Of a DNA stretch of 45,587 nucleotides, positions 1-9,305 are shown one piece after another. Where the stretch lies: IMG/VR virus record IMGVR_UViG_2597489870_000004; one strand, given 5' to 3'. The stretch is from a virus. Taxonomy: Duplodnaviria; Heunggongvirae; Uroviricota; Caudoviricetes. Below the pieces are notes generated by a model, which was given only the letters and a program-made list of their open reading frames with translations, ran no database searches and had not been told where the DNA came from. How positions within the stretch are numbered: the first letter of the stretch is position 1; the number at the start of each line of letters is the position of its first letter. Position numbers and translations under genes: made by a program.

Positions 1-837
1 GTGCAAAAGAATGGCGATACCTTGTCCGGTGGGCTTACTTTTGAAAACGACTCAATCCTTGCCTGGATTCGAAATACTGACTGGGCGAAGATTGGATTTA
101 AAAATGATGCCGACAGCGATACTGATTCATTCATGTGGTTTGAAACAGGCGACAACGGCAATGAATATTTCAAATGGAGAAGCCGCCAGGGCACCACAAC
201 AAAAGACCTGATGACGCTGAAATGGGATGCACTAAATATTCTTGTTAATGCCGTCATTAATGGCAGCCTTGGAGTTGGTACGACGAATGCGTTAGGTGGT
301 AGCTCTATTGTTCTTGGTGATAATGATACCGGATTTAAACAGAATGGAGACGGTATTCTGGATGTTTACGCTAATAGTCAGCGAGTATTCCGCTTTCAGA
401 ATGGAGTGGCTATTGCTTTTAAAAACATTCAGGCAGGTGATAGTAAAAAATTCTCGCTATCCAGCTCCAACAACTCTACGAAGAACGTAAGGTTTAATTT
501 ATGGGGCACTTCATCAAGACCAACTGTTGCAGAGCTTGGTGATGATTCAGGCTGGCATTTCTATAGTCAGCGAAATACAGATAACTCGGTAATATTTTCT
601 GTTAACGGTCAGATACAGCCCAGCAACTGGGGGAATTTTGATTCACGCTATGTAAAAGATGTTCGCCTGGGTACGCGAGTTGTTCAATTGATGGCGCGTG
701 GTGGTCGTTATGAAAAAGCAGGACACGCAATTACCGGATTAAGAATCATTGGTGAAGTAGATGGCGATGATGAAGCCATCTTCAGACCAATACAAAAATA
801 CATCAATGGCACATGGTATAACGTAGCACAGGTGTAA
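1..837 (+). CDS. Alternate side-tail-fibre C-terminal segment (Sv'-like), 5'-partial at window edge; no own start in window
   Basis: ORF open from base 1; N-terminus (QKNGDTLSGG) resembles residues just after the recombination site of the minus-strand stf gene (QKKQNGADIPG); followed directly by a tfa-like gene; convergent with the expressed stf-tfa pair. Confidence 0.55.
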   Translation: MQKNGDTLSGGLTFENDSILAWIRNTDWAKIGFKNDADSDTDSFMWFETGDNGNEYFKWRSRQGTTTKDLMTLKWDALNILVNAVINGSLGVGTTNALGGSSIVLGDNDTGFKQNGDGILDVYANSQRVFRFQNGVAIAFKNIQAGDSKKFSLSSSNNSTKNVRFNLWGTSSRPTVAELGDDSGWHFYSQRNTDNSVIFSVNGQIQPSNWGNFDSRYVKDVRLGTRVVQLMARGGRYEKAGHAITGLRIIGEVDGDDEAIFRPIQKYINGTWYNVAQV

Positions 838-840
838 ATT

Positions 841-1368
841 ATGCAGCATTTAAAAAATATTAAGTCAGGAAATCCAAAAACAAAAGAGCAATATCAGCTA
901 ACAAAGAATTTTGATGTTATCTGGTTATATACAGAAGACGGTAAAAACTGGTATGAGGAAGTAAATAGCTTTCAGGAAGACACCATAAAGATTGTTTACG
1001 ACGAAAATAATATTATTGTTGCCATAACCAAAGATGCCTCAACGCTTAATCCCGAAGGCTTTAGTGTCGTTGAGATTCCAGATATAACAGTCAATCGTCG
1101 TGCCGATGATTCAGGGAAGTGGATGTTTAAGGACGGAACTGTGGTTAAGCGGATTTATACAGCAGACGAACAGCAACAACAGGCCGAATCACAAAAGGCC
1201 GCATTGCTTTCCGAAGCTGAATCAGTCATCCAGCCACTGGAACGCGCTGCCAGGCTGAATATGGCAACAGACGAGGAGCGCACACGACTGGAGTCATGGG
1301 AACGCTACAGTGTTCTGGTCAGCCGTGTGGATACGGCAAATCCTGAATGGCCACAAAAGCCTGAATAA
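841..1368 (+). CDS. tfa: Tail fibre assembly protein (alternate copy, Tfa/U'-like)
   Basis: 175-aa ORF starting [23 protein letters not shown]-terminal signature shared with the minus-strand tfa copy and with phage Tfa proteins. Confidence 0.8.
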
Positions 1369-1394
1369 AAATTAAGGCCCGCTATCGGGCCTTG
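1366..1394 (-). terminator. Hairpin terminator between convergent tfa genes
   Basis: Stem AAGGCCCG / CGGGCCTT (1375-1394) with loop CTAT; T-run follows on the minus strand; lies 3 nt below the stop of the minus-strand tfa and just after the plus-strand tfa. Confidence 0.45.
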
Positions 1395-1396
1395 TC

Positions 1397-1930
1397 TCAT
1401 TCAGGTTGTTCGGGAAACGTTACTGGCAGGCTGGAAGTGTCTGTAGATTCGACTTTCTGCGCAAAGAGTATCCACTCTGTTAATTTTTGTTTACTCTCGT
1501 CGGAAATGATGCCCAGCCGTAGCTGTGAGTCCCATAACTGGGTTTTATCCCTGACAAGTTGCAACAGGCTTTGCTTTTCATTCTCTGCCTGCTGCCTCTG
1601 CTCTTCCCCGGTATAAGTTCGCTTTATCACTACGCCATCTTTGAACATCCATTTACCCGAAATATCAGCCCGGCGATTTGCTGTAATATCAGGTAATTCA
1701 ACGACGCTTGCGCCTTCTGGATTAATTGCTGAAACATCCTTTTCAATACAAATAATAACGCCGTTACGGTCATAGACCATTTTCAACGTATCAGGCTGAA
1801 AGTTCTTTTGTTCCTCATACCAGTTTTTTCCATCATCTGAATAAAGCCATTTGATGTTAAATTGTTTCGTTAGCTGGTATTGCTCTTTTGTTTTAGGGTT
1901 GCCAGCAGTAATGTTTTTTAAGTGCATCAT
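1397..1930 (-). CDS. tfa: Tail fibre assembly protein
   Basis: 177-aa [33 protein letters not shown], immediately downstream of stf; Tfa family signature. Confidence 0.85.
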   Translation of the reverse strand: MMHLKNITAGNPKTKEQYQLTKQFNIKWLYSDDGKNWYEEQKNFQPDTLKMVYDRNGVIICIEKDVSAINPEGASVVELPDITANRRADISGKWMFKDGVVIKRTYTGEEQRQQAENEKQSLLQLVRDKTQLWDSQLRLGIISDESKQKLTEWILFAQKVESTDTSSLPVTFPEQPE

Positions 1931-1932
1931 AA

Positions 1933-4900
1933 TTAAATACTCCCCGCGTTATACCACCTTCCATTAATGCAATACTGAATTGGCCTTGCCTGAGTTGTAT
2001 CAATTAATTCATCACGGTTTCCGTTAACTGAACCCGTAACGACATAACCTGACCTGTCAGACCAGCCGGGACCATTCCATGTCTGAACAGATGACAGACC
2101 GCCCAGGCGAATACCTGTAATAAACCTTGAGTTACATTCTGCCTGCGTATATGCACCAACATCCCCCGCAGAGGGTTTGCGGGTTGTGGTGTAAAACTCT
2201 GACCAGTTAGCTTCAAAGCCATAACCATCACGCGCTGAACGATAAAAGATACCGCCGTTTTTATAATTCACGCGGAACTGTACAGCAGGGCAACTCCCCG
2301 CATTCATATTAAAGTGGAGGATTAATGTCGATGCGCCACTGATATCTGCATCATAAACGCCGCTATTCCAGTTCCAGCCAACAGCTTTATCATTTGCAAC
2401 CCTGCTTCCTGTTTGCCCTAAAGCAAATGCAGGCTGCTGGTTTTTCGTGTTGTAGTCTCGTCGCCAGCCAGGAGCATAAGCATCACCATGATTAATATAG
2501 GTGAATTGAGCGTTAGTAATTCCGCCACCGCTGGATGTACTCGGCGTAGTAACGCGTATGGTCATTGCGCCGCGAGTGCCAATAACTTCCACCACAGCAC
2601 CTGCAAGACAAATATTTCCGCAACCTGTATCTGTAATGACCTTATTGTTTGCATAAGCCCATGAGCCTTTGCACATCCAGTAAGGATGGTTAAATGCCCC
2701 CTGACTCTCCAGCCACGAAATGAATTGTGCGGTTGTCCAGGTCTGACTATCGCCACCAATATTCAGCCATGCGCTATATGCGCGGCAGGCACCAATATTT
2801 TTGGTGAAGGTATCTTTTCCTGGAATATCTGCGCCGTTCTGTTTTTTCTGTAATGCGCCAGAAGCCTGATTTACCGTTTCCTGTAAACCGAGGTATTCGA
2901 TAACAGCGGCAACGGTCGATTTCGCAAGAATATCCCGCCCGACTTTTGTCAGAGTTGCCAGGCTGGCGACATCATTCCCCGTAAAATACGGAAACTTGTC
3001 TGCCGCAGTAGCAAGCCCGGCCAGCGCCGTCAGGGTGGCATCTTTCGGTTGCTTACCCGCAAGCGCTTTAGTCATGGTGGTCGCAAAATTCGGGTCGTTT
3101 CCCAGCGCCGCCGCTAACTCGTTCAACGTATTCAGTGCGTCAGGCGACGAGTCTACAAGTGCGGCAATCGCGGCCATCACATAAGCCGTGCTTGCGATCT
3201 GAGTATTATTAGTCCCTTTTGGCGCAGTTGGCGTTGTTGGCGTTCCGGTCAGTGCAGGACTATTTAAGGGCGCTTTCTTGTTCGTTTCATCCATTACCGC
3301 CTTAACAGCTTTTGGCGTCGCAGCCAGCGTTTCAGATGTGCTGTTAGTGGCGCTACTGAGCTGAACTATCCCTTTTCGTGCCGTCGTTGCGTCCTGAGCG
3401 GTATATTTTGCGTTAGCAAGGTCATATGCTGCCTTTACTGCCTTTGGTGTTGCCGCCAGTGACTCGGAAGTGCTGTTAGTGGCGCTACTGAGCTGAACTA
3501 TCCCTTTTCGTGCCGTCGTTGCGTCCTGAGCGGTATATTTTGCGTTAGCAAGGTCATAGGCTGCTTTTACTGCCTTTGGCGTTGCCGCCAGCGTTTCAGA
3601 CGTGCTGTTGGTCGCACTGCTGAGCTGTACTATCCCCTTTTTCGTCGTGCTCGCATCCTCAAGCGCCACGGCGGATGCAATATCCTCTGCCCGTTTTGCC
3701 GCTGTCTCGGCGCGCGTTGCCGCGGATTCCGCCGTACTTTTGCTCTGAGCTGCCGCCGTCGCACTGCCAGCTGCCTCTGTCGCCTTCGTGGATGCCGTCG
3801 TGGCGCTGCCCTTTGCTGCTGACGCCTGTCTGGTCGCCTCATCTTTTGAAGCAGACGCAGATGATGCCGATGACGCCGCCGAACTGGCGGACGATGCGGC
3901 AGCCGTTTTTGAGGATTCTGCGCTGGTTTCCGACGCTTTCGCGTTCGTCTCGGATGTCTTCGCTGCGGAAGCAGACCTCGCTGCTGCGCTGGCCTGTACA
4001 GCGGCTTCGCCAGCATTCGTTGTGGCTGTTGAAGCGGACGATGCAGCACTTTCTGCCGATTTTCCGGCGGCGGTGGCACTGGCTGAGGCCTGCCCGGCAC
4101 TTGTTGACGCGGCACTGGCAGACGACGCAGCCGCTGTTTTTGAGCCTGCCGCAGCTGAGGCGCTCTGTCCCGCTGCCGTTTCAGAAGACCTGGCGTTCGT
4201 CTCGGACGTTTTTGCCGCCTTCGCAGAATTTGCTGCCGCCGTTGCCGAGGAAGCTGCGCTGCTGGCGCTCGAGGCTGCGTTCGTTTCTGATGATTTTGCC
4301 GCCTCTTTTGAAGCCGACGCATCCCGTGCTGAAGTGGCTGCTTCTGACGCTTTCGTGGTCGCAGTGGATGCAGAAGTGGCTGCTGATTGTTGTGACACTG
4401 CCGCATTCGTTTCTGACGTTTTCGCCGCACCGGCACTGGTAGCCGCCGCGCTTTTTGAGGACTCTGCAGCGGCAGCACTTTTTGATGCCTCAGAGGCTTT
4501 TGCTGATGCCGTTCCTGCGCTGGAAGACGCTGACTGAGCCGACGACGCGGCCTGTCCGGCTGACGTGCTGGCTGCACGTGCTGAGCCTGCAGCATCAGTC
4601 GCATGGGTTGCCGCCTCACGGGCAGATGTGCTGGCATCACTGGCTGACTTCTTCGCGGCTGCCGTGTTCTGTGCCACTGCGGACGCGTTACGCGCCACCT
4701 CTTCCACCATCAGTTCAAAACGTCGCAATGCCTCCGGACGGGCATCATCCTCCGTCATGGCACCGAGAAAATCATTCAGCGTACCGGGTTGAGAATCTTC
4801 ATACACGGTGATGGTCCCGGCATGTGACGGCGGGAATCCCTCCACCAACAGAATAACGCTGTACTGACCGTACTCAACGTCCATGCTGTAACGCCCGGCT

Positions 4901-5034
4901 TCATCCGGATTTTCTGAGGCCAGCGTGTTCACCACCACCGTGGTGCTGTTACGTTTTGCTTTCAGCTGGATTGTGCAGTTCTGTACCGGTTTTCCTGTGC
5001 CGTCTTTCAGTACACCTGAAATCTTTACTGCCAT
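1933..5034 (-). CDS. stf: Side tail fibre protein Stf (lambda Stf-like N-terminal two-thirds, different C-terminal receptor domain)
   Basis: Translation MAVKISGVLKDGTGKPVQNCTIQLKAKRNSTT... matches the remembered lambda Stf N-terminus through the Ala/Ser-rich region; start set at second ATG (5034) with GGGGTG upstream; first ATG is at 5040. Confidence 0.9.
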   Translation of the reverse strand: MAVKISGVLKDGTGKPVQNCTIQLKAKRNSTTVVVNTLASENPDEAGRYSMDVEYGQYSVILLVEGFPPSHAGTITVYEDSQPGTLNDFLGAMTEDDARPEALRRFELMVEEVARNASAVAQNTAAAKKSASDASTSAREAATHATDAAGSARAASTSAGQAASSAQSASSSAGTASAKASEASKSAAAAESSKSAAATSAGAAKTSETNAAVSQQSAATSASTATTKASEAATSARDASASKEAAKSSETNAASSASSAASSATAAANSAKAAKTSETNARSSETAAGQSASAAAGSKTAAASSASAASTSAGQASASATAAGKSAESAASSASTATTNAGEAAVQASAAARSASAAKTSETNAKASETSAESSKTAAASSASSAASSASSASASKDEATRQASAAKGSATTASTKATEAAGSATAAAQSKSTAESAATRAETAAKRAEDIASAVALEDASTTKKGIVQLSSATNSTSETLAATPKAVKAAYDLANAKYTAQDATTARKGIVQLSSATNSTSESLAATPKAVKAAYDLANAKYTAQDATTARKGIVQLSSATNSTSETLAATPKAVKAVMDETNKKAPLNSPALTGTPTTPTAPKGTNNTQIASTAYVMAAIAALVDSSPDALNTLNELAAALGNDPNFATTMTKALAGKQPKDATLTALAGLATAADKFPYFTGNDVASLATLTKVGRDILAKSTVAAVIEYLGLQETVNQASGALQKKQNGADIPGKDTFTKNIGACRAYSAWLNIGGDSQTWTTAQFISWLESQGAFNHPYWMCKGSWAYANNKVITDTGCGNICLAGAVVEVIGTRGAMTIRVTTPSTSSGGGITNAQFTYINHGDAYAPGWRRDYNTKNQQPAFALGQTGSRVANDKAVGWNWNSGVYDADISGASTLILHFNMNAGSCPAVQFRVNYKNGGIFYRSARDGYGFEANWSEFYTTTRKPSAGDVGAYTQAECNSRFITGIRLGGLSSVQTWNGPGWSDRSGYVVTGSVNGNRDELIDTTQARPIQYCINGRWYNAGSI
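2878..2903. other. gix/hix-like 26-bp recombination site for a serine invertase, inside stf
   Basis: Sequence ttcctgtaaaccgaggtattcgataa closely resembles the remembered Mu gixL site (TTCCTGTAAACCGAGGTTTTGGATAA); positioned at the constant/variable boundary of the tail fibre. Confidence 0.55.
3338..3733 (-). repeat. Three tandem in-frame 132-bp repeats (44-aa units) within stf
   Basis: Direct repeat unit starting gtgctgttagtggcgctactgagc at 3338 and 3470 (near identical), third diverged copy from 3602; encodes repeated GIVQLSSATNSTSE(T/S)LAATPKAVKA... modules. Confidence 0.8.
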
Positions 5035-5044
5035 ATTCACCCCA

Positions 5045-5072
5045 CAAAAAAGCCCGCCTGAACCGGCGGGCT
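5045..5072 (-). terminator. Rho-independent terminator downstream of lom
   Basis: Hairpin agcccgcc-tgaacc-ggcgggct (5051-5072) followed on the minus strand by a T6 run. Confidence 0.6.
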
Positions 5073-5098
5073 GTCATAACACTGTGTTACCTGGCTAA

Positions 5099-5698
5099 TC
5101 AGAATTTATAACCAACACCCACGATGAACCCGTCAGTGCGCCAGTCGCCACTACCGGAGCCTTCATAAGCGACATCAATGGCCACGGATTCGGTCGGGTT
5201 AAACTGCACGCCAGCTCCCCACGCCAGAGACGTGTTGCTGTGGCGACCGTCATCACTTCCGGTCAGCACATCGTGCGTTTTCCCCTTGTTGTCAGTTACG
5301 CGGATATAATCTCCGGAGAAAGTCGAAACACGGCTGTAAGCCATACCCGCCATCGCATACGCGCTGAACCATTCATTCACGCGCACAGACGGCCCCGCCA
5401 TCACGCTGAACCAGCGGTTACGCACGAAATCCTCATGCCAGCGGGTATCGCTGTAATGCGTTTTTTGCTCATCTTCAGCGTTGGCATAACTGAATGACGT
5501 AATCAGCCCCAGCGTGTCCGTAAACTCATAACGGTATTTCACGTTAATCCCGTTCAGATTATCGCTGCCGGGAGCGTTCGTACGGGCATGAAGATACCCT
5601 GCGCTCAGTGTGGCCTGCTGCTCAGACGCCCATGCAGGCGCACCGGATACGGCCAGACAGATGGCTGCGGACAAAATGGCTGCACAAACTTTACGCAT
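5099..5698 (-). CDS. lom: Lom outer membrane protein (Ail/PagC/Lom family beta-barrel)
   Basis: 199-aa ORF with signal peptide and C-terminus ...AYEGSGSGDWRTDGFIVGVGYKF identical in style to lambda Lom; located between J and stf as in lambda. Confidence 0.9.
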   Translation of the reverse strand: MRKVCAAILSAAICLAVSGAPAWASEQQATLSAGYLHARTNAPGSDNLNGINVKYRYEFTDTLGLITSFSYANAEDEQKTHYSDTRWHEDFVRNRWFSVMAGPSVRVNEWFSAYAMAGMAYSRVSTFSGDYIRVTDNKGKTHDVLTGSDDGRHSNTSLAWGAGVQFNPTESVAIDVAYEGSGSGDWRTDGFIVGVGYKF

Positions 5699-5721
5699 AA
5701 TTACCTCTCGCTTTTCTGCAA

Positions 5722-5746
5722 TAAAAAAGGCGCCATTTCTGGCGCC
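5722..5746 (-). terminator. Rho-independent terminator downstream of J
   Basis: Hairpin ggcgccatttctggcgcc (5729-5746) followed on the minus strand by a T-run. Confidence 0.55.
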
Positions 5747-5765
5747 CGTATATGGGTTATAAAAT

Positions 5766-8700
5766 TCAGCTGATACTGATGCCTGCGGTGGCTTTCTTCA
5801 TCACCACAACCAGCAAATCGCTGATACTTGCTGTGGGATACCAGTCATTTACCAGCCATGCTGACACCGAAAACTCCAGCGTCATGTGGCCGTGACCAGC
5901 TGGCATATCAATAACACCACTGTAAATCAGCGTATTATCCAGCGCGGTACGGTTATAAATTTCAGCACCATTTTTCTTCACTATCAGGCGGCATGACGAA
6001 TAAATATCGTTATTCTCCCGCTCATGTTTAGCGCCGCAGAATGCCACCGCCGGAATAACAATTTGCCTGTCAAAAGGCTGATCGTCATAAATCCTGACGG
6101 TAATGGTCCCTGATGGCCACCGCTCCGGTGCCCGGGAGTCCCGCGGAAAAGCCTTACCCACTGTTTTGACAATATCGCCTTCAATCTGGTTGGCTGACAG
6201 TTTCCCTTTAATCTGACAGTTCTCATTTATCGTAACGTTGTTGAGCGTCCCGGCGTTAGCATTCACACTGCCACTGATATCCGCATTTTTCGCCGTCAGT
6301 CGCCCGTCCGGTGTCAGGGAAAATGCCGGATGATTACCGCCGCTGGTAATGGTGGGAGCCGTCAGATATTTCAGGAACACTTCATTCATGAATATCTGAT
6401 CACCCTGACCAACAAACATCGGTTTTGTGTTGCCATTTGCAGGATTAATCATCGCAATCCTGTCCGCCGCCAGCAGCACCTGACTCTGCATGCCGTCAGG
6501 GGTGTTCTCAATACCGGCACCAATACCCGCGATATAAAGGCGTCCGTCCTGCATCTGCTGCAGCTTCACAGCCCACATGCTGTTCAGGTTATTATTTGTA
6601 TCAACCTGAACCTTCTGTATCTGCTGAATTGCCGCACTCTGGTCTTCCAGTTTCTTATTGACGGTCTGCGTGATTTCATTGCTGACATCCGTAATGGACG
6701 TCCTGATTTCAGTCAGGTCAGGCGCAAGCTGACCGTTATCAATCTGCGTCCACAGCTCCTGAGCCAGATGGGTTTTCCCTATCTCGCCTTTGAAAAAATC
6801 CAGATAGCCGGATGCATCATCACTCGGCTGACCAACAGCCTCCACGAATGCCGATTTGCCAACGGTGTTCACACTGCGAACGTAAAAATAATAATCATGG
6901 CCCGGTTTGATATTGATACTGGCGGCTATCCAGTACAGCGCCGTACCAAGATAACGCGCGCTGGTTTCAACCTGCCTGATATCAGCAATCCGTTTTTCCG
7001 AGAACCAGAACTCAAACTGTACCGTCGGATCATAAACCGCAAGATGCGGCGTGGCGGTTATCTGAAAATAGCCCGGCGTCAGCTCAATCCGCGACGGTGC
7101 TGCCGGTGCGGCAATCCGGAACAATACCGACGCCGGATCGCCCTGCTGCCCCCAGGCATTTGCCGCCCTGACTGTCAGCCTGTAGTTTCCCAGCGCCAGT
7201 TGCGTGAAGCGGTATGTGGTTTCCGTCGTCCGGGCCGTGCTGACCAGCCGCTCACTGCCGTCGTCTGCTGCCACAGTCAGGCGAAGCATAAAGCTCACCC
7301 CCTTCACCACCTTCGGCGTGTCCCATCGCGCCAGCACCTGATATTCCCCGCTGTCTGCAGTGACTTCGGCGGTCAGATGCTGCACTGCTGACGGCGTGAC
7401 ACCATTCACCGTGCCGCTCTGATCACCGTCAAAGTGCGCCCCGTTATCCACGATGGCCTCTTTCTCCGGCACATGCTGCACGGCAGTGATGGCATACGTG
7501 CCGTCGTCGTTCTCACGGATACTCACGCAGCGGAACAGGCGCTGGCGCAGCGTCGGCAGCTTAAGCCCCCACACGCTGTATTCAGCAACACCGTCAGGAA
7601 CCCGGCTCACTTTTACCTTCACGCCGTCGGTGACGGACTGAACCTCCACGCTGACCGGACTCCCCTGCCCGTCAACCAGGCTTATCAGCGTGGTGCCGGA
7701 GGCTGGCAGCGTGATTTCACGGTCGAGCGTCAGTGTCCGCGTCTGGCTGTTCACCGCCAGCACGCGCCCGCCGGTGCTGATGCCCGCATAGTCATCATCG
7801 CAGATTTCAATGACATCGCCCGGTACATGGCGAAGCCCTTCGGCACCCACGCTGAAGTCCACGGTCTGCGTTTCCAGCAGTTCCGTTTTAATCAGCCACA
7901 GCCCGGCTCGGTGTGCCTGCCCCCGACTGGTACAACCAAAGGCATCCATCTTCGTGACATTACGACCGTAACGGGCAATGGCCTGCGTATCTTCAACAAG
8001 CTCTGTCGCCGTCTCCCAACCGTTGTTCGGGTCAATCCAGTTCACCTCAACGGCATTATGGCGGTCCTTCAGGGCGCTGAAGCTGTAGCGGAACGGCGCG
8101 CCATCATCCGGCATCACCACATTACTGCGGTTATAGGTCCACACCTTATCCGACGGTCGGTCCTGCACGAACGTCAGCGTCTGCCCGTTCCATACCGGCA
8201 TACAGCGCATCGCCGAGCAGAAATCACTGAGCACATCCCACGCCTTGCGCTGTGTGGTCAGGTAAGCGTTACAGGTGATGCGCGGCTCCGTGCCGCCAAA
8301 GCCGTTCGGCACCGACTGGTCGCAATTCTGGCCGATGACATACAGCGCCCATTTATCCACATCCGCCACACCAAGACGTTTCCCCATGCCGTAGCGCGGA
8401 TGGGTCAGCATATCCCACAGACACCAGGCCATGTTGTTGCTGTATGCTGGCTTAAACGTTCCGTCCCAGATACCGCTGTATTGCCGCGTCTGCGGGTTAT
8501 AGTTCGACGGCACCTGCAGAATGCGCCCGCGCAGATGATAATTACGGCTCACCTGCTGGCTGCCGAACTGCTCCGAGTCCACCTGCACGCCGACCAGTGC
8601 CGTGTTCGGGTAGCCCTGTTTCACATCGATGATTTCGGTGTATGACGACCAGAGCGTTTTGTTCTGCAGCTGGTCTGTGGTGCTGTCCGGCGTCATCCTG

Positions 8701-9245
8701 CGCATCCGTATATTGAACGGGCGCGGCGGCAGGTTACCCACCACCACCGAGGCCAGATACTGCGAGGTGGTTTTGCCCTTAATGGTGATGTCTTTTTCCG
8801 TCACCCAGCCACCATTACGCTGGATCTGAACCAGCAGGCGGACTTCCGACGGATTCCGGTCCCCCTTTGAGGTGGTTTCCACCAGTGCCTGCACACCGAA
8901 GGTAAAGCGCAGACGGTCGATGTTTGCAGACGTGATGGTCCGGGTGATCGGCGTGTCGTATTTCACTTCCGTACCCAGCACCGTCTCGGAACCGGAGGAT
9001 TCAAATCCCTCCGGCGGTGTCTGCTCCTGCTCACCTGCCCGGAACACCACCGTGACACCGGAGATGTTGGTATTCCCCTCACTGTCCAGCACCGGTGTAC
9101 TGTTCAGCAGCACGCTTTTTAATCCATCCACCGGACCTTCAATCGGCCCTTCGCTGATGGCATCGATCACACTCAGCAGCTGCGTGGATTTCAGGTTATC
9201 CTTCGCTTCGCGCGGGGTATGCCCCTTACTGCTGCCTTTACCCAT
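5766..9245 (-). CDS. J: Tail tip / host specificity protein J
   Basis: 1159-aa ORF starting [48 protein letters not shown], matching remembered lambda J; position after I. Confidence 0.95.
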
Positions 9246-9305
9246 TCGTCATGCTCCATAAACGACAAAACCGCCCGGAGGCGGTTTCACATAAAACATT
9301 TTGCA

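Follow-up and report, generated by a model that had tools for sequence, protein, structure and literature searches.

The phage tail fibre repeat PF03406 (Phage_fiber_2, "Pf2") has been recognised in Stf of phage lambda, K of 186, H of P2, S of P1 and S of Mu, where units of about 42-44 amino acids (aa), often arranged in tandem, occupy the same place in the tail fibre proteins. The present work deals with such units in a stretch of DNA of 45,587 nucleotides (nt) from a virus of the class Caudoviricetes (IMG/VR record IMGVR_UViG_2597489870_000004), hereafter called the window, whose side tail fibre gene, stf, contains three of them in a row. The window is 100% identical to the enterotoxigenic Escherichia coli (ETEC) strain H10407 (NC_017633.1, with stf at 1330394-1333501), in which the stf product is labelled a prophage tail fiber N-terminal domain-containing protein. 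The units have the motif (xAxTxxKGIVQLSSxxxSTSExLAATPKAVKxAYD), the length and the location of the described members of PF03406, and there is no difference in kind. In our opinion, it is quite probable from the comparison of alleles that a recent out-of-register recombination added a third unit to an array like that of an O114 strain, with two units already diverged from each other; a single triplication is not what the alleles point to.

Copy number is the feature in which the closest described systems vary. The H10407 gene has three units with a period of 44 aa, whereas lambda Stf, StfR of the K-12 Rac prophage and Mu S (residues 111-153) have one each and some proteins have up to 12 nearly identical units. 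The statement of the initial annotation, made from the letters of the window, that lambda Stf contains a single related segment proved correct: lambda orf-401, the N-terminal part of Stf, carries one copy, DADTTRKGIVQLSSATNSTSETLAATPKAVKVVMDETNRKA, continued by VVMDETNRKA. The H10407 protein leaves its repeat in the lambda manner, through AVKxVMDETN(K/R)KA, and it shares with lambda Stf and StfR the N-terminal domain PF08400, the Ala/Ser-rich rod and the gene order J-lom-stf-tfa; the identity to stfR reaches 96% over the first 1,488 nt of the H10407 gene. Besides the number of repeats, the difference from both lies in the C-terminal end, which in H10407 is similar to those of Mu S' and P7 Sv and not to those of lambda or StfR.

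The closest relative known to us is stf of E. coli O114:H49 90-9280 (WP_099483649.1, 989 aa), to which similar two-unit alleles, including that of TW10828, can be added. It has the same tfa arrangement and differs by one mismatch in the last 1,545 nt, but it contains two units instead of three, and its 5' half has diverged by 2-20 mismatches per 100 nt. Another similar case is gene 37 of phage T4, in which host-range duplications in the adhesin reportedly arose in frame, by recombination between short repeated motifs. In both cases a small fibre module was tandemly duplicated in frame; in T4, however, this concerned the receptor-binding tip and changed the host range, whereas in H10407 it concerns the middle of the fibre.

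In the window, the array is read in frame as part of the minus-strand open reading frame (ORF) 5040..1933, and GIVQLSS starts at aa 469, 513 and 557. The natural phase of the unit opens at codon 462 with DA(S/T)T..K, which gives three units of 132 bp (44 aa) and 396 bp in total. Tandem Repeats Finder returned a period of 132 with 2.6 copies and a score of 544 at 3299-3641, and a separate repeat search of the window gave three copies spaced by 132 bp. The Pfam profile PF03406 was matched at 182.6 bits (cut-off 22) in three stretches, the best of which, aa 464-504, extends over 1-41 of the 42 profile positions; the units stand in a prophage tail fibre protein with PF08400 and a downstream Tfa, and their period of 44 aa falls into the family range of ~40-56 residues. 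Pairwise comparison of the units gave 110, 98 and 87 identical positions of 132, against 37.8 +/- 6.9 (maximum 76) for random in-frame block pairs of the same gene.

A 44-aa module repeated in tandem and in frame midway along the side tail fibre had been noticed in the initial annotation, and the period, the three units and the three profile stretches confirm it. The interval given there, 3338-3733, does hold the repeat, but it is shifted by 76 bp toward the 5' end of the gene, the true span being 3262-3657, and was given without a strand; it takes in 76 nt of non-repeat sequence (3658-3733) and omits the real third copy at 3262-3337. Likewise, the description of three units with the first two nearly identical is right for the blocks 3338-3469 and 3470-3601 (93.9%), but not for the block 3602-3733, which shows only ~51% identity to either of them.

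The origin of the third copy becomes apparent from the O114 allele. Over the 1,545 nt that begin halfway through unit 2 and end with the stop codon (gene nt 1564-3108) one mismatch separates the two genes, and in the first 1,500 nt at the 5' end there are 2-20 per 100 nt. The O114 allele can be aligned with that of H10407 only if it is kept in register as far as nt 1571 and taken up again, with a shift of 132, from nt 1564; therefore, the junction must lie within gene nt 1564-1571, i.e., window positions 3470-3477. The longest perfect run at the offset of 132 is 89 nt in H10407 as compared with 19 in A5, 17 in O121, 11 in O114 and 9 in GPEC657. Eight differences between the nearly identical blocks are all located in gene nt 1440-1482, where six are silent and two fall into one codon (Ser/Thr). 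Up to nt ~1476-1482 the H10407 gene is nearly identical to K-12 stfR, GPEC657 and A5, and from nt 1483 it is of the O114 type. Because the sequence is stfR-like to nt 1476 and O114-type from nt 1483, the eight differences show where a separate recombination tract on the 5' side ends; therefore, they are not mutations acquired after the duplication, and the duplicated material is undiverged. It was also observed that the 5' half of stf is a patchwork (window 3558-4040), in which nt 1000-1430 are identical to the three-unit alleles of A5/O121 type and nt 1431-1476 to K-12 stfR.

Thus, copies standing head to tail, a sister allele with one copy fewer and a junction within shared sequence, as expected of a recent tandem duplication by unequal homologous recombination, were all found. 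The recent gain of one copy suggested in the initial annotation fits these data, the closest allele being a two-unit one with 99.94% identity over the 3' 1,545 nt and the 89-bp perfect repeat being present only in H10407. The word "triplication", used there, does not describe the event: the units of the O114 array had already diverged from each other (83/132, 63%), and one unit was added to them. An out-of-register homologous exchange involving units 1 and 2, either as unequal crossing-over or as slippage, would have added the 132-bp unit, and a separate recombination tract would have replaced the 5' part of stf, to nt ~1482, with stfR-like sequence. In the simplest histories, the 132-bp duplication may have taken place in an O114-type two-unit allele whose 5' part was replaced afterwards, or a single unequal crossover may have joined an O114-type allele to another multi-unit allele; either way, two units already present became three.

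Copy numbers in relatives were compared in a sample of genes sharing both the N- and C-terminal ends, taken from 5,426 complete E. coli genomes. Within it, genes of 3,108 bp were found only in H10407 and in "E. coli SEC470", two-unit genes (2,976 bp) in 11 records and one-unit genes (about 2,844 bp) in ~22. The SEC470 record (NZ_CP007594.1) agrees with H10407 NC_017633.1 exactly in length (5,153,435 bp) and in gene coordinates, so that it gives no independent support. The comparison across related prophages, proposed in the initial annotation, thus gives in this sample three units with both ends shared only in H10407, and the other genes have two or one. Three copies were never seen among the best 120 protein relatives, which all have one or two.

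In the family as a whole, three copies are not unusual. Three-unit arrays with the same period, joined to other C-termini, are present in independent complete genomes (A5, O121 and O157-type prophages). One 44-aa unit matches 2,449 clusters at 50% identity (of 1.84 billion representatives, E <= 0.001), and public tail fibre proteins contain arrays of 2-12 nearly identical copies, while 14-17 stretches are matched in some few long ones. The spacing of units in the best 150 representative proteins is most commonly 44 aa (70), followed by 56 aa (34). In a phage collection, 569 copies were counted in 407 records, with 2-4 in P2-like phages and 15 in one P1-like phage. It may be concluded that three copies are unremarkable for Phage_fiber_2 and are real but ordinary variation; public data already show the repeat family, its occurrence in Stf-type fibres and its variation in copy number, and the finding is in kind already known. 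Searches of the literature gave no specific prior description of a change in the copy number of the Stf repeat.

The same distribution of alleles may be read in the opposite direction, with three units as the ancestral state and the one- and two-unit alleles formed elsewhere by deletion through the same unequal recombination. Unequal exchange is reversible, alleles with one, two and three units coexist, and there are common, older alleles (A5, O121/O157-type) in which three units are combined with other C-termini. Nevertheless, we consider such a contraction improbable: an old array should be diverged, as are those of A5 and O121, whose best 132-nt block identities are 110-113 with runs of <=19 nt, whereas H10407 has an 89-nt perfect run and duplicated material identical to the O114 allele, and three units are found in only one strain of ~35 with this architecture. 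Even less probable, in our estimate, is that gene conversion (concerted evolution), or replacement in patches from an O114-type allele, made the units of an older three-unit array alike without any new duplication. In its favour, stf is plainly composed of short pieces of several alleles (nt 1000-1430 identical to A5/O121, nt 1431-1482 stfR-like and nt 1483 to the end O114-like), but both nearly identical blocks and all sequence 3' of them are of the O114 type, while O114 itself has only two units; to place it twice, the sequences must still be aligned out of register, and in its mechanism this would be the same event.

An erroneous expansion of a two-unit array in the H10407 assembly is very unlikely. 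The three-unit allele comes from a single independent assembly, but the reading frame is kept, the whole array takes just 396 bp, the eight fixed block differences match real alleles, and arrays of three units with an equal period occur in the independent complete genomes mentioned above. Presumably, the capillary reads used to finish the H10407 genome exceeded the array in length. Returning to the out-of-register gain of one unit, some considerations weigh against it: the direction of change follows from parsimony and the lack of divergence; a true ancestor of the H10407 allele was not found among the 5,426 complete genomes, where the best match of the 5' part is 96.1%, so that no single closer donor is present there; and in a look-up for independent assemblies, the exact protein was on record only on FN649414.1, so the three-unit allele rests on one assembly.

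As to the fibre itself, the array has the proximal Ala/Ser-rich rod on one side and, on the other, the conserved distal linker, beyond which lies the receptor-binding end of the Mu S' type. The extra unit would stay in frame and add 44 residues per chain to the middle of the fibre, or 132 per trimer if the fibre is trimeric, as is assumed for this class, and it would spare the N-terminal attachment domain, the distal linker and the receptor-binding end. Presumably, the fibre gains in its mid-section one more structural module, which may act as additional length, as a flexible bead or as a hinge. On the other side, rotary-shadowing images of a related fibre were read as a globular Pf2 bead between stalks and not as a stiff shaft, and little is known about Pf2 according to the same authors (Ghosh et al. 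2012, PMC3368898). Sequence and profile searches of the PDB with the repeat matched only Mu S (5yvq, 8ju3, 9ki1), and sequence cannot tell whether the repeat is ordered there; in the Mu cryo-electron microscopy paper only "the N-terminus" of gp49 was built. An AlphaFold2 model of the monomer (aa 440-720, alignment of 32 sequences) was an all-helix guess with a mean predicted local distance difference test (pLDDT) of 44.6 and a predicted template modelling score (pTM) of 0.25, and it was discarded as meaningless.

Table 1. Features of the stf region, with their positions in the window
Feature	Position	Strand	Basis and remarks
stf, side tail fibre gene	1933..5040	minus	3,108-nt ORF, 1035 codons from GTG; ORF list, translation, Pfam phage_tail_N + 3x Phage_fiber_2
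N-terminal tail-attachment domain PF08400, aa 3-136	4633..5034	minus	Pfam E = 9e-72, whole profile matched
Ala/Ser/Thr-rich low-complexity rod, aa 137-461 (325 residues), with loose short repeats	3658..4632	minus	translation; direct-repeat families D2-D6
Phage_fiber_2 unit 1, aa 462-505, DASTTKKGIVQLSSATNSTSETLAATPKAVKAAYDLANAKYTAQ	3526..3657	minus	5' 93-99 nt K-12 stfR-like, remainder O114-type
Phage_fiber_2 unit 2 (extra unit), aa 506-549, DATTARKGIVQLSSATNSTSESLAATPKAVKAAYDLANAKYTAQ	3394..3525	minus	hybrid: first 56 nt shared with unit 3; identity to O114 unit 1 beginning at unit nt 49
Phage_fiber_2 unit 3 (terminal), aa 550-593, DATTARKGIVQLSSATNSTSETLAATPKAVKAVMDETNKKAPLN	3262..3393	minus	132/132 identical to O114 unit 2; lambda-like VMDETN exit
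89-bp perfect direct repeat, upstream copy, gene nt 1483-1571	3470..3558	minus	offset comparison at 132; contains the 8-nt junction window 3470-3477
89-bp perfect direct repeat, downstream copy, gene nt 1615-1703	3338..3426	minus	offset comparison at 132
Conserved distal linker, aa 594-714, ...SPALTGTPT...DSSPDALNTLNELAAALGNDPNFATTM...	2899..3261	minus	sequence match to solved fibre chains 9d93 gp4 and 6v8i gp68
Variable C-terminal receptor-binding part	1933..2903	minus	95-98% nt identity to Mu S', D108 S' and P7/P1-like Sv; match to 8ju3 S/S' chimera
gix-like invertase crossover site in stf, encoding ..YLGLQETVN..	~2869-2902	minus	25/26 match to inverted copy
tfa, tail fibre assembly chaperone	1397..1930	minus	PF02413, E = 1e-33
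Silent half: promoterless Mu-S(G+)-like fibre C-terminus (1-837) and second tfa (841-1368)	1..1368	plus	
Lom homologue	5099-5698	minus	upstream of stf
J tip protein	5766-9245	minus	upstream of stf

The gene can be assigned to the lambda-type Stf/StfR proteins by its PF08400 domain and by the minus-strand gene order J - lom - stf - tfa, and it occupies the lambda stf position (Table 1). The program-made ORF opens at the GTG at 5040, and RefSeq picks the ATG at 5034 (MAVKISG..., 1033 aa); the latter start is favoured because lambda Stf likewise begins with MAVKISG. The window comprises a complete prophage of the lambdoid kind, whose lambda-type integrase lies at the far end (44469-45587). Its tail fibre end adjoins a methyltransferase gene, pseudogene fragments of tail fibre assembly genes and then potB/potA (L005 8143-10001), and this junction suggests remnants of earlier fibre cassettes.

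The rod corresponds to the region called "PCoil" in related fibres (Ghosh et al. 2012, PMC3368898), and it may form a coiled coil. The loose rod repeats are multiples of 7 aa, with AAKTSETNA recurring on the minus strand at 3658-4632. Long ORFs at 3675-4442 and 3788-4537 on the plus strand and at 3630-4640 on the minus strand are, judging by composition, probably spurious by-products of GC-rich runs of Ala/Ser codons.

The C-terminal third of Stf is, by its similarity to Mu-type fibres, a clear case of a receptor-binding end exchanged between phage types, and it is part of a further rearrangeable element. The inverted partner of the gix-like site in stf is located 15-48 nt beyond window position 1 (L005 6434-6490). 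Between the two inverted sites there are the expressed Mu-S'-like fibre end with its tfa and, in opposite orientation, the silent end with the second tfa. In the invertible segments of Mu (G), P1/P7 (C) and e14 (P), gix-like inverted sites also enclose two opposed cassettes of a C-terminus plus tfa, and a serine recombinase gene adjoins them. In H10407, the adjacent recombinase (Resolvase) ORF is not an intact serine invertase but a remnant of 64 aa, and the element is a Mu-G / P1 C / e14 P-type segment that has probably lost its own invertase. With a recombinase ORF of only 64 aa the segment is therefore probably locked, and switching, unlike in the three systems named, would need an invertase acting in trans.

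The position of the repeat also coincides with places where fibre genes are joined. In nucleotide searches, the fibre genes of other E. coli strains and of phages repeatedly cease to match H10407 stf at gene nt 1476-1488 (stfR, 2H10 and many others), at nt 1620-1629 and at nt 1730-1749 (O157, O121 and O145 prophages). These ends correspond to positions ~83-114 of units 1, 2 and 3, just 3' of the conserved ...PKAVKA core, where they seem to cluster. The repeat core may thus provide the stretch of homology for swapping distal fibre parts between phages. Tail fibre genes are said to be mosaics exchanged at conserved motifs, and the ends at the repeat core fit this long-standing picture.

The finding matters little beyond annotation, since it concerns a known repeat family in a published, annotated genome. 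Nevertheless, the H10407 allele is a cleanly mapped case of array growth, with a junction of 8 nt and a sister allele one base off in 1.5 kb. The apparent clustering of fibre-gene breakpoints at the 3' border of this core is relevant to the design of chimeric Stf proteins for phage-based delivery, and unit counts could be wrong in short-read assemblies. A broader idea, which we regard as rather doubtful, is that Phage_fiber_2 units do not serve solely as spacers but act as built-in recombination joints, at whose conserved DNA core unrelated phages (lambdoid, P2, P1, Mu) would trade their distal receptor-binding cassettes. Out-of-register use of these joints would alter the number of units and so might tune the reach or flexibility of the fibre to the thickness of the O-antigen or capsule of the host. 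If this were true, the H10407 allele would be a fresh example of both cassette exchange and a change of unit number in one gene.

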